From positions 405,015 to 469,014 of the forward strand of contig CAWDSG010000002.1 in the NCBI GenBank assembly GCA_963804975.1: a DNA stretch of 64,000 nt. The letters are read 5' to 3'. Positions within the stretch are counted from its first letter, which is position 1, and every line of letters begins with the position of its first letter. The notes under the pieces were generated by a model that did not search any database, had not been told where the DNA came from, and saw nothing but the letters and a program-made list of their open reading frames with translations. The translations under genes were made by a program, and so were the position numbers. This DNA comes from an uncultured bacterium. GTDB lineage: Bacteria > Patescibacteriota > Minisyncoccia > Phycocordibacterales > GWA1-40-21. Below, one piece after another: positions 18,409 through 21,408 of the stretch.

Positions 18409-21276
18409 TTATACAACAAAGTTGATTACTTTGTTTTTAACGAAGATTTTTTTAATAATTCTCTTGCCGGAGAGCCACTTGACAATATCTTGATTGTTTA
18501 AAGCTGATTTTTCCACTTTATCCTCCGAAGAATCTGCCGGTACGTCAAGAGTTGCCCGAACTTTGCCGTTTATCTGCACAACGATTTTCACATTTCCCGA
18601 TTTTAATTTGCTTTCATTATATTTCGGCCAGCTTTCCAAAGCAATCATTTTTTTACCACCAAAGTTTGCCCAAATCTCTTCACAGATATGCGGAGCAAAA
18701 GGAGAAAGAATTTTTATCAAGGATAAATATGATTCCTTGCTTATCTTGTCCTCTCCTTCAAAATTATTCGCCAAAATCATCATTGCAGAGACCGCAGTGT
18801 TTGCATTGAATGATGCGATATCGTCTCCGACTTTTTTTATCGTTTGATTCAATAATATTTTCGTTTCCTCGCTGTCGGTAAAATTTTCGGCAACTTTTTC
18901 CTGAAGCTTCCAGACCTTGTCCAAAAATCTTCTTGAGCCAACCATGCTATCGGTGCTCCAAGCAATCTCCTGTTCAAACGGTCCCATAAACGACTCATAA
19001 ACCCTGAGTGTGTCGGCGCCTACATTTTTTACCACCTCATCGGGATTGACCACATTTCCCCATCTTTTTGACATTTTCCTGTTATCCGAGCCGAGTATCA
19101 TTCCCTGATTTCTAAGCTGTTTAAAGGGCTCTTTTGTGCTTACTATGCCTATATCAAAGAGAAACTTGTGCCAAAAACGAACATAAATAAGATGTCTTGT
19201 GGCATGCTCCGTACCTCCGACATACATGTCCACCGGAGCCCAATATTTTTCTTTTTTCGGATCAACCAAGGCCTTATCGTTTTTTGGATCCATATAGCGT
19301 AAATAATACCAAGATGAGCCGGCCCATTGCGGCATCGTGTTTGTTTCTCTTTTACCGGCACCGCCGCATTTCGGACACTTCACGTTTACCCATTTTGTCA
19401 TGGCGGCAAGCGGCGACTCTCCGGTTCCTGTCGGTTCGTAAAATCTGACCTTTGGAAGCATAACAGGCAGATCTTTTTCCGGAACTGCAACTGTCCCGCA
19501 TTTTTCACAATGCACTATCGGGAATGGCTCGCCCCAATATCTCTGACGCGAAAAAACCCAATCCTGAAGTTTGTATGTGACTGTCATTTTTCCGCCGGCA
19601 AATTCTGTGATTTCTTTCATTATTTCCGTATTTTTCTTGCCGTCAAATTTTCCGGAATTGATCATTATTCCATTGCCGATAAATGCATGTGGTCCTTTTT
19701 CCAAATGAGCAATAATTTCAGGGAGTTCCGAAACAGGCCAAAAAATTTTATTTATTTCTGAAATCGGCACCCATACAACAGTGTGCTTCTCCGATTCTTC
19801 ATCTGAAAGTTCATTTTTTTCGAGATTCGCTAGTTCCACAACAAAAACTTGAGTAAATGCCTGGCGATTGACATTCTTATGTGCTGCATAAAAATGCGTT
19901 TCCATTTGCCAGCCAAGTTTCTCCACTTTTTTAAAATTTTTATAGCCGGTTTCTTCTTTCACTTCCCGTGCGATAGCATCTTCGCGCGATTCGTTTTCAT
20001 CAACGCCACCGATAACAAGTGTTTTCCATGGAACTTTTTTCCATTGGATTTGAATGATCTTATCTTCGGTAGGATGCTTCACAATTGCCTGCACATTGGC
20101 TCTCGGACTCCATTGTTTATCATTTTTGGGAAGATTATCTTTATCAATAAAAAACGGTGCAATAACCTGTTTTATCGGCAAATTATATTTCTTTGCAAAA
20201 GCAAAATCGCGGTCATCATGTGCCGGCACAGCCATTACTGCCCCCGTGCCATAATTCGCCAAAACATAATCCGCGATAAATACGGGAATTTCTTCCTTGT
20301 TTACTGGATTTACGGCTTTCACTCCGTCAAGTTTAACGCCGGTTTTTTCCTTGCCTTCCGCAGTCCTTTCTATTTCCGTCCTGTTTTTTATTTCCTTCCT
20401 GTATTTCTCAACTTCAGCCCAATTTTTTATCTGCGGCTTCAATTCATCAATCAAACTATTTTCCGGAGCAATAACGACATAAGAAAGGCCGAATAAAGTA
20501 TCAGGTCTTGTAGTGAATACTTTTATTTCTTTTCCTGCCTGCGCAGGCAGGTTTGAATCCTTAATTTTAAAAGTAATTTCCGCGCCTTCCGAACGGCCAA
20601 TCCAATTCCTCTGCAATTCCTTGATGTGTTCCGGCCAGGCAAGCTCATCCAAATCATTCAAAAGCCGATCGGCATAATCGCGGATTTTCAAAACCCATTG
20701 TTTCATCTGTTTTTTCTCTACCACAGTCCCGCACTGTTCGCATTTTCCGTTCTCTATATCTTCATTTGCCAATCCGGTCTTGCAGGAAGGGCACCAATTT
20801 ATCGGCGCAAATGACTCATAAGCCAGACCTTTTTTGAACATCTGCAAGAATATCCATTGCGTCCATTTGTAATATTTCGGATCTGTTGTGTTTATTTCCC
20901 TATCCCAATCATAATCCAGACCTATAATACTTAACTGTTCTTTGTATCTTTTGACATTTTTCTTTACTGCAATTTCAGGATTTATTTTATTTTTTAAGGC
21001 GTACTGTTCTGCCGGCAAGCCAAAAGCGTCCCAACCCATCGGATGAAGAACATTAAAACCATTCATTCTTTTGAATCTTGAATAAATATCAGTAGCGACA
21101 TAACCTCGCGGATGGCCGACATGAAGGCCTTCTCCCGACGGATACGGGAACATATCAAGCACGTAACATTTCGGCTTGTCGCTCTTCTCGGTGGTCTTGT
21201 AGATTTTTTCCGCAGCCCATTTCTTTTGCCATTTCTTCTCAATCTTTATGTGGTCGTATTTGCCGGTTTTATTCAT
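18409..21276 (-). CDS. leuS: leucyl-tRNA synthetase with inserted Nudix-like domain
   Basis: HVGH, editing domain, KMSKR, anticodon-binding domains. Likely start MNKTGKYDHIKIEKKWQKKW at 21276 (ORF track extends to 21342). About 160 extra residues between the AHDDRDF..IKQVI and GIMINSGKFDG blocks contain a perfect Nudix box. Confidence 0.93.
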   Translation of the reverse strand: MNKTGKYDHIKIEKKWQKKWAAEKIYKTTEKSDKPKCYVLDMFPYPSGEGLHVGHPRGYVATDIYSRFKRMNGFNVLHPMGWDAFGLPAEQYALKNKINPEIAVKKNVKRYKEQLSIIGLDYDWDREINTTDPKYYKWTQWIFLQMFKKGLAYESFAPINWCPSCKTGLANEDIENGKCEQCGTVVEKKQMKQWVLKIRDYADRLLNDLDELAWPEHIKELQRNWIGRSEGAEITFKIKDSNLPAQAGKEIKVFTTRPDTLFGLSYVVIAPENSLIDELKPQIKNWAEVEKYRKEIKNRTEIERTAEGKEKTGVKLDGVKAVNPVNKEEIPVFIADYVLANYGTGAVMAVPAHDDRDFAFAKKYNLPIKQVIAPFFIDKDNLPKNDKQWSPRANVQAIVKHPTEDKIIQIQWKKVPWKTLVIGGVDENESREDAIAREVKEETGYKNFKKVEKLGWQMETHFYAAHKNVNRQAFTQVFVVELANLEKNELSDEESEKHTVVWVPISEINKIFWPVSELPEIIAHLEKGPHAFIGNGIMINSGKFDGKKNTEIMKEITEFAGGKMTVTYKLQDWVFSRQRYWGEPFPIVHCEKCGTVAVPEKDLPVMLPKVRFYEPTGTGESPLAAMTKWVNVKCPKCGGAGKRETNTMPQWAGSSWYYLRYMDPKNDKALVDPKKEKYWAPVDMYVGGTEHATRHLIYVRFWHKFLFDIGIVSTKEPFKQLRNQGMILGSDNRKMSKRWGNVVNPDEVVKNVGADTLRVYESFMGPFEQEIAWSTDSMVGSRRFLDKVWKLQEKVAENFTDSEETKILLNQTIKKVGDDIASFNANTAVSAMMILANNFEGEDKISKESYLSLIKILSPFAPHICEEIWANFGGKKMIALESWPKYNESKLKSGNVKIVVQINGKVRATLDVPADSSEDKVEKSALNNQDIVKWLSGKRIIKKIFVKNKVINFVV
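19678..20160 (-). other. Nudix hydrolase-like domain inserted within LeuS (Nudix box GGVDENESREDAIAREVKEETGY at about 19942..20010)
   Basis: Matches Gx5Ex7REUxEExGU exactly. Flanking beta-strand-like segments ANVQAIVKHPTEDKIIQIQ and VVWVPISEINK. Confidence 0.65.
20534..20551 (-). repeat. GC-rich palindromic element copy (CCTGCCTGCGCAGGCAGG, perfect palindrome), in frame in leuS
   Basis: Encodes NLPAQAGKE in LeuS. Confidence 0.7.
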
Positions 21277-21408
21277 ATTAAAACATAATATAACAAAAAT
21301 AGTCGGAAATAAAGAGTTCTTTGGCTTGACATAATCCGTCATTTAATTAAGATAGGACCAGAACAGGCAAGTCCGTTCCTTTCCAAAAAAATCTGTCAGG
21401 AGAGAAAA

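Follow-up and report, generated by a model that had tools for sequence, protein, structure and literature searches.

A putative Nudix hydrolase nested within the editing domain of a patescibacterial leucyl-tRNA synthetase

Aminoacyl-tRNA synthetases are highly conserved enzymes whose extra domains have repeatedly exposed new biology, including editing, signaling and moonlighting functions. Two curated protein families provide precedents for the architecture described here: NF040702, 'isoleucine--tRNA ligase, N-acetyltransferase domain-containing', in which a synthetase carries a second catalytic domain, and NF003786, 'bifunctional nicotinamide-nucleotide adenylyltransferase/Nudix', in which a Nudix hydrolase is fused to a maker of adenylylated products. 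Synthetases also make diadenosine polyphosphates (ApnA) and Nudix enzymes cleave them; in the metabolism of diadenosine tetraphosphate (Ap4A), the source (a synthetase) and the hydrolase (NUDT2, RppH/NudH or ApaH) are separate proteins that act in trans. The leucyl-tRNA synthetase (LeuS, or LeuRS) considered here would make that link covalent, should its Nudix domain cleave such dinucleotides. It is encoded on the minus strand at 18409..21276 of a 64,000-nucleotide stretch (the window) of contig CAWDSG010000002.1 from an uncultured member of the Patescibacteriota, and a Nudix hydrolase domain is inserted in a loop of its CP1 editing domain (19678..20160, minus strand). In contrast to the free-standing Nudix hydrolases of family PF00293, here the whole protein is nested in another enzyme and reaches none of the curated sub-families. 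Both NF040702 and NF003786 differ from it in host, domain or position, and the window protein matches them only weakly; we know of no evidence for multiple insertion sites or cassette exchange in either system.

The insert reads in frame as 161 amino acids (residues 395-555 of the mechanical open reading frame (ORF), 373-533 of the 955-residue protein). It is bounded by two conserved LeuS blocks, both on the minus strand: AHDDRDFAFAKKYNLPIKQVI upstream (20161..20223, ORF residues 374-394), which holds the Asp motif of the editing site, and GIMINSGKFDG downstream (19639..19671, ORF residues 558-568), where the CP1 domain resumes. The Thermus thermophilus enzyme has 11 residues at this position, between residues 363 and 375, and orthologous LeuS proteins that lack the insert have about 9, in the pattern '(EVI)S-GGNISE-KAY(TxDG)'. 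The window LeuS carries 161 extra residues between the equivalents of T. thermophilus residues 363 and 375 and thus exceeds the usual loop by about 150, confirming an original prediction, made from the DNA sequence, of about 160 additional residues between these blocks, where it put about 18 for E. coli LeuS.

The Pfam NUDIX model PF00293 matches the insert alone with 53.1 bits (E = 4.2e-14; gathering threshold 21.1) and the whole protein with 48.9 bits (E = 8.4e-13), and chance is excluded as the source of the match. The Nudix box, GGVDENESREDAIAREVKEETGY (19942..20010, minus strand, ORF residues 445-467), follows the GX5EX7REUXEEXGU pattern; its description as textbook in the original prediction holds except at the last U, which is normally aliphatic and is here a Tyr, as it is in 86% of the family. 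Structure prediction gave a concordant picture. The full-length AlphaFold2 model (87 sequences) has a mean predicted local distance difference test score (pLDDT) of 90.1 and a predicted template modeling score (pTM) of 0.80, with the insert at pLDDT 92-95, and the insert modeled alone reaches pLDDT 95.7 and pTM 0.89, with the expected strand-helix-strand layout and the box on helix 59-71. The predicted structure has the alpha/beta/alpha sandwich of the Nudix superfamily, in which a loop-helix-loop bears the box, and a Foldseek search with it returned 520 PDB matches at E ≤ 1e-3, among which all those listed have the Nudix fold. The insert is therefore predicted with high confidence to fold autonomously as a complete Nudix domain, and the proposal that such a domain lies inside LeuS is borne out by both the profile match and the predicted fold.

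In all, 295 copies of this Nudix type were aligned, 196 of them from the same insertion site as in the window (site A). Over the site-A copies the box residues are conserved at 98% (G51), 97% (G52), 88% (E57), 91% (R65), 99% (E66), 97% (E69), 100% (E70) and 97% (G72); the metal-binding Glu residues are thus kept in 97-100%, and 167 of the 196 copies have a fully canonical box. Outside the box, conservation of 76-98% extends to R20, W40, W45, K95, N98, R99, L110, E122, H126 and W130 (at site A, K95 98%, N98 95%, R99 93%, E122 90% and W130 98%), and R20, K95 and W130 are invariant across 74 aligned LeuS proteins. The conserved residues downstream of the box are specific to this family (19771..19893, minus strand) and fall in two segments, FYAAHKNVNR at 19864-19893, covering F/Y90-F/Y91, H94, K95, N98 and R99, and EESEKHTVVW at 19771-19800, covering E122, H126 and W130; they are probably substrate-binding residues. 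Comparison of the window insert with its closest relative (in P0029) gives nonsynonymous and synonymous divergences of dN = 0.10 and dS ≈ 1.8, respectively (dN/dS ≈ 0.055), indicative of strong purifying selection. Together, these features make it very probable that an active Nudix enzyme is nested in a functional LeuS. A complete, conserved Nudix enzyme in an intact LeuS would make the gene product a two-enzyme protein, and the insert most likely stays in the mature polypeptide.

The host is a full-length bacterial LeuS. The NCBIfam equivalog TIGR00396 (leuS_bact) scores 1023.8 bits against the window protein (cut-off 548.4), and the nearest solved structures are bacterial LeuRS enzymes, led by T. 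thermophilus 1H3N (E = 1.3e-219). The T. thermophilus (1H3N/2BYT) and E. coli (4AQ7/4ARC) enzymes share its full-length LeuS organization, including the zinc-type Cys pairs; nothing in it corresponds to T. thermophilus residues ~582-637, a segment that we take to be the leucine-specific domain (residues 581 and 638 are adjacent in the alignment). The synthetic site retains the HIGH-type motif HVGH (21112..21123, minus strand, ORF residues 74-77; H52, G54 and H55 are invariant in the alignment) and the KMSKS motif as KMSKR (19063..19077, minus strand, ORF residues 756-760), which is conserved in the alignment. The part of the CP1 editing domain upstream of the insert (20161..20610, minus strand, ORF residues 245-394) contains the T-rich editing motif TTRPDT (20497-20514, minus strand, ORF residues 277-282) and an intact editing Asp block, AHDDRD (ORF residues 374-379). 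The Pfam editing-domain model PF13603 (211 bits) aligns its positions 1-143 of 185 to ORF residues 245-397 and breaks off there in the full protein; the insert occupies a surface loop close to the C-terminal end of CP1. With all the canonical motifs kept, the LeuS part presumably charges and proofreads tRNA-Leu as usual.

The mechanical ORF (18409..21342, minus strand, 977 residues) begins 22 codons upstream, at window positions 21277-21342, of the likely start, M23 (ATG at 21274-21276), which is supported by alignment of homologue N-termini and gives 955 residues (the gene coordinates include the stop codon); the additional N-terminal peptide MTDYVKPKNSLFPTIFVILCFN is probably not translated. 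Around the gene, the order YqeY-RmuC-LeuS-sigma70_r4/HARE-HTH-DUF8128, with RmuC upstream and the sigma70_r4/HARE-HTH protein followed by the DUF8128 protein downstream, is common to relatives with and without the insert, which suggests that the window LeuS is the orthologous housekeeping gene rather than a spare paralogue.

The architecture is not rare, occurring in hundreds of database genomes. Precomputed PF00293 matches occur in 105 of the best 120 relatives of the full LeuS, and the relatives found with the full LeuS are annotated as Candidatus Paceibacterota, Pacebacteria or Vogelbacteria. A word-indexed homologue search with the insert alone gave a single 118-residue fragment, and an exhaustive search of representative proteins was needed; among 1.84 billion of these, only 369 matched at E ≤ 1e-3, so the insert belongs, by sequence similarity, to a small and distinct Nudix family. 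Genome loci were scanned with an 11-sequence Nudix alignment (A4; a 31-sequence alignment, A3, was too variable), taking one genome per species, and at least 532 species-level genomes were found to contain this Nudix type. Most are Patescibacteria, the candidate phyla radiation (CPR), with titles that include Paceibacterota, Berkelbacteria, Zambryskiibacteriota, Moraniibacteriota, Buchananbacteria, Taylorbacteria and Uhrbacteria, as well as many automatically labeled metagenome-assembled genomes (MAGs). Of the best 80 genome loci, 78 have the Nudix domain within LeuS and the other 2 have it free-standing, and LeuS hosts ~245 of the 295 surveyed copies. The 64-kb window holds no further copy of this family and no other Nudix-box motif. 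Four carriers (L025, L035, L047 and L050) are MAGs labeled 'archaeon', 'Pacearchaeota' or 'Woesearchaeota'; their LeuS proteins are of the bacterial type, have the Nudix domain inserted at this site too and diverge at the C-terminal end. They represent either transfer between CPR bacteria and DPANN archaea or else mis-binning or mislabeling, and the genes flanking the L025 locus (ArsR-type HTH, ScpB and RNase HII) are not diagnostic of an archaeal or bacterial origin.

A map of 270 proteins, drawn up from their LeuS segments and Nudix copies, shows that this Nudix type occupies at least five positions in LeuS, with up to three copies in one protein. Site A accounts for 199 copies, site B1 for 41, site B2 for 5 and the C-terminal side for 5, and 49 copies have no recognizable LeuS flanks. 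Site B1 immediately precedes the CP1 hinge, following '...LLNDLDE', and often holds two tandem copies, B2 is the first CP1 loop, and the C-terminal sites are around the zinc-type motifs HCEKCG and CPKCGG. Copies within one LeuS are only 22-46% identical, compared with 60-90% for copies at the same position in other species; the multiple copies are therefore, on sequence identity, old positional paralogues, and recent intragenic duplication is ruled out as their source. A prolyl-tRNA synthetase (ProRS; P0233, 643 residues) also contains this Nudix type, located between its anticodon-binding and C-terminal domains; an M17 leucyl aminopeptidase (P0167, 1318 residues) has two copies together with two GNAT domains, and in P0250 (393 residues) the domain is fused to a serine hydrolase. 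Free-standing members of 160-190 residues begin with Met and hold the N-terminal arm 'P-x-F-I-D..NPPR.GK..VER', and so it appears that an entire Nudix protein was inserted and not a fragment. By reading of translations, the neighbors of one free-standing copy (L079) include housekeeping genes, among them one for a subunit of DNA polymerase III, and give no functional clue.

Two variations of the box were observed away from site A. In a subset of second copies at site B1 (for example P0137, residues 244-368; patterns GGQAEEEG and GGQMEEEG), E57 has become Gln and, at the same time, R65 has become Ala, Met or Thr, with all three metal-binding Glu residues retained; the joint change looks like the co-variation of a salt-bridge pair. 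In P0186 and two similar free-standing copies the box glycines are written as Trp ('WWEREEEW'), which suggests that these sequences stem from lineages that, like Gracilibacteria/Absconditabacteria, use UGA for Gly, and that UGA was read as Trp when they were translated.

Other enzymes have been placed in the same synthetase. In P0015, P0078 and P0101, a HAD-type phosphatase of 206-211 residues (HAD_2, E = 5e-12, FDFDGVLGDT) follows CPKCGG, at the second zinc-type Cys pair (window equivalent ~19360-19377); it is accompanied by a single Nudix domain in P0015 and by three in P0078 and P0101 (~1520 residues). Serine hydrolase inserts of 176-195 residues occupy the first CP1 loop (window equivalent ~20530-20560) in P0074, P0089, P0097, P0112 and P0115, and a further one follows HCEKCG in P0019; they match PF06821 (E down to 2.6e-20), a family of alpha/beta fold, and contain the nucleophile elbow GHSLG, and an esterase within the editing domain may, as an idea, be an extra deacylase. 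A third, conserved insert of 129-135 residues after HCEKCG (window equivalent ~19495; P0013, P0023, P0041 and P0102) matches no significant Pfam family ('...VW.a..dG.KT.ETRALNPEEK.RYFGD..VGDIL...') and by eye resembles a small PUA/ASCH-like beta-barrel. The largest LeuS found, L037 from a Candidatus Taylorbacteria MAG (PLXZ01000004.1), spans 1735 codons from stop to stop, about twice the normal length; it has three Nudix domains and unassigned stretches of ~185 and ~205 residues where its relatives hold the serine hydrolase and HAD modules.

Comparison of the insert with its host reveals separate histories. Thirteen close LeuS relatives (801-822 residues) have no insert and are scattered among the insert-bearing ones in a neighbor-joining tree of the core (without bootstrap), and the presence of the ordinary loop in syntenic orthologues indicates that the insert is dispensable. 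Simple deletion is doubtful as the source of most of these proteins, as 12 of the 13 have the ordinary bacterial loop 'S-GGNISE-KAY' and a remnant is found only in P0043 (815 residues). There, the Nudix core is gone and the first ~22 residues of the insert, IPERIDKRNLPICDKAEVD, are kept; its sequence marks it as a true secondary internal deletion, and at least one insert-less state therefore arose in this way. Among insert-bearing proteins, the core of the window LeuS is 80-82% identical to those of P0003, P0005 and P0021, whereas its Nudix domain is just 31-42% identical to those of P0003 and P0005. Conversely, the window Nudix is 84% identical to those of P0028 and P0029, whose LeuS cores are only 64% identical, and 75% identical to those of P0045 and P0120, with cores at 57-63%. 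In sliding windows the closest partner changes exactly at the insert borders, at both the protein and the nucleotide level, and core and insert identities are uncorrelated over 74 LeuS proteins with a site-A insert (Spearman 0.04). LeuS proteins that are at least 76% identical to the window protein in the core contain five insert clusters as well as the empty state.

Judged by these identities, the window LeuS is a mosaic, with an insert history decoupled from that of its host gene. The simplest explanation is that the insert has been replaced by homologous recombination via the two conserved flanking blocks, which makes the blocks at 20161-20223 and 19639-19671 candidate homology arms for cassette exchange. 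With dS ≈ 1.8, near saturation, the exchanges do not appear to be recent. Viral contigs gave only 20 weak, partial and generic Nudix matches, mostly at 28-39% identity, and phage carriage of the cassette is therefore not supported.

The best reading of these results, to which we give about an even chance, is that an active hydrolase is tethered to LeuS as an exchangeable module. The Nudix part would hydrolyze a nucleoside-diphosphate-linked or polyphosphate compound by means of the Mg-binding Glu residues of its box, and its link to LeuS would consist of co-expression and physical tethering, with no fixed channel between the active sites. LeuS itself would act as a carrier with several insertion-tolerant loops, which in Patescibacteria would hold exchangeable modules of the Nudix, HAD phosphatase and serine hydrolase types, and the Nudix domain at site A would be replaced or lost by recombination across the two conserved blocks. 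The occurrence of divergent Nudix paralogues with HAD and esterase modules in one LeuS suggests that the synthetase carries part of the small hydrolase repertoire of the cell in these minimal genomes. The existence of at least five attachment points and of a free protein makes a fixed channel to the LeuS active sites unlikely, and the varied sites, the absence from orthologues and the independent exchange fit loose tethering better than a coupled filter for side products; that the module is tethered and exchangeable without geometric coupling is, in our estimate, close to evenly balanced between right and wrong.

Several observations weigh against this interpretation. The family is overwhelmingly bound to LeuS (78 of the best 80 loci; ~245 of 295 copies), a preference that the carrier model leaves unexplained and that hints at a role specific to LeuS or tRNA-Leu; it leaves real room for a LeuS-linked function, which may be the Ap4A hydrolysis or the RNA-end activity considered below. 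In addition, one protein (P0165) has two copies at site A, and part of the discordance between core and insert could reflect differential loss of ancient tandem paralogues instead of exchange. Such sorting could add to the discordance and would need many ancestral copies.

Among the alternatives to a tethered module, the one that survives best is that the Nudix domain is a dedicated hydrolase of Ap4A, Ap3A or related dinucleotides made by LeuS from leucyl-adenylate, so that a side product or signaling nucleotide would be limited at its source; we consider this possible, though rather unlikely. Both halves of the chemistry, synthesis of ApnA by synthetases and its cleavage by Nudix enzymes, are established, the same family occurs in a second synthetase, the ProRS, and the strong bias to LeuS points to a synthetase-linked role. 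The conserved basic residues R20, K95, R99, H94 and H126 would suit a polyphosphate chain and, more generally, the many conserved basic and aromatic residues may suit a nucleotide with such a chain, which we treat as a lead only. F90 and Y91 lie 17 and 18 residues past the box, and more than 90% of copies have F or Y at these positions; an aromatic residue ~17 residues past the box is a non-specific marker of ApnA hydrolases, again a lead only.

Profile and structure matches do not single out this activity. No NCBIfam Nudix sub-family model reached its cut-off with the window protein; the best was RppH (NF001936, 29.3 bits where 118 is the cut-off), with NadM-Nudix and the YffH/AdpP family next, and no Ap4A-hydrolase model was among the NCBIfam matches. 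Sequence matches of the insert in the PDB are weak (best 2pqv, E = 1.8e-4; the Ap4A hydrolase 1f3y, E = 0.16), with at most 25% identity to any solved Nudix protein. The closest structure is the uncharacterized MutT/nudix family protein 2AZW from E. faecalis, followed by NudI/YfaO, RppH and DIPP1, and the structural neighbors span many substrate classes: NTPases, RppH, diphosphoinositol and diadenosine polyphosphatases, ADP-ribose pyrophosphatases and MutT types. Furthermore, a single side product hardly explains up to three divergent paralogues at five or more positions, orthologous LeuS proteins manage without the insert and, to our knowledge, LeuRS is not among the strong Ap4A producers, which we also count against this explanation. 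Our best guess for the substrate is a (di)nucleoside polyphosphate such as Ap4A or Ap3A, or else an adenine nucleotide related to them, with ApnA itself a tentative assignment that has more against it than for it.

A broader proposal, which we regard as doubtful, takes the Nudix and other hydrolase inserts not as passengers but as an accessory, lineage-specific layer of LeuS function in Patescibacteria. Tethered at defined loops, these enzymes would act on aminoacylation products, on tRNA-Leu or on its aminoacyl or nucleotide adducts, and recombination through the conserved flanks would swap them between species as cassettes. Action on RNA in particular is improbable. LeuS would then bring the Nudix domain to tRNA-Leu or nearby RNA, for removal of a 5' pyrophosphate or nucleotide cap in the manner of RppH or NudC or for repair of modified tRNA ends, in keeping with the tRNA-binding nature of both LeuS and ProRS and with insertion into the editing domain, which handles the tRNA 3' end. 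Every RppH score is far under cut-off, however, and mature tRNA has a monophosphate at its 5' end and lacks a diphosphate linkage at its 3' end; the varied sites, free-standing relatives and M17-peptidase host also misfit an enzyme positioned by tRNA.

We find it equally improbable that the insert is a fast-turnover conflict module, housed in an essential gene and destroying a nucleotide toxin or signal of phages, hosts or competitors, with replacement by divergent insert types as the mark of an arms race. The five insert clusters plus empty state among closely related cores, the lack of correlation between core and insert, and the sporadic presence and absence would all be expected of such a module. 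Against it, the neighborhood consists of housekeeping genes in conserved order and not a defense island, the viral contigs hold only distant generic Nudix sequences, the insert is under strong purifying selection and its exchanges date far back (dS ≈ 1.8); the PADLOC defense models gave nothing meaningful for the window protein beyond a sole, weak match of 18.9 bits to PDC-S07, a Nudix-type candidate model.

As with inteins, the insert occupies a conserved site of an essential gene, is sporadic among close relatives and has a history decoupled from its host; it differs in having no Hint fold, splicing residues or homing endonuclease and in being an enzyme under purifying selection. An intein was ruled out, since the Pfam scan shows no Hint or intein family and the junctions are QVI|APFF and AFIGN|GIM, with no nucleophile residue after the insert at IGN|GIM. 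It is very improbable that the domain is catalytically dead, with a structural or regulatory role, that it is an artefact of assembly or frameshifting, or that it is a selfish element of the intein type, removed from the mature protein. The in-frame position and the sporadic spread superficially recall an intein, and a minority of copies at another site have lost the E57/R65 pair, but the window copy has the full box, the metal-binding Glu residues are conserved at 97-100%, dN/dS is ~0.055, the identical protein is present in the NCBI and ENA collections from a 606-kb contig, and hundreds of genomes share the architecture.

The components of this protein, a Nudix hydrolase, a bacterial LeuRS and the acquisition of extra domains by synthetases, are already known. 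No description of a LeuS-Nudix architecture was found in the full-text literature, most subscription journals lying outside it, in keeping with the original prediction, which knew of no such description; one paper (PMC9503650) mentions Nudix alongside 'tRNA ligase', but means RNA-repair ligases only. Three features are apparently new, in that we did not find them described: the Nudix domain inside the LeuS editing domain, the decoration of one synthetase with hydrolases at multiple sites and in multiple copies, and the cassette-like exchange.

The sequence evidence is robust, and the architecture is of interest for synthetase and CPR biology. A second whole enzyme resides inside the editing domain of a housekeeping LeuS in a large, poorly understood and genome-reduced radiation, and in relatives a single LeuS, up to 1735 residues long, can combine as many as three Nudix domains with a phosphatase or an esterase. 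As the proteins are named plainly 'leucine--tRNA ligase' or 'class I tRNA ligase family protein', with the Nudix domain visible in databases via precomputed Pfam hits, the putative hydrolase activity is missed in metabolic reconstructions of these organisms. If the Nudix domain is a passenger, essential genes would serve as carriers of exchangeable enzyme modules in minimal genomes, and the inserts would provide a map of insertion-tolerant LeuS loops usable by protein engineers. If it acts on products of the synthetase or on tRNA, it would represent a new form of quality control or nucleotide signaling built into translation and, should the inserts prove to be an accessory layer of LeuS function, they would reveal an unrecognized way to build and diversify a multi-enzyme translation factor within one essential gene.

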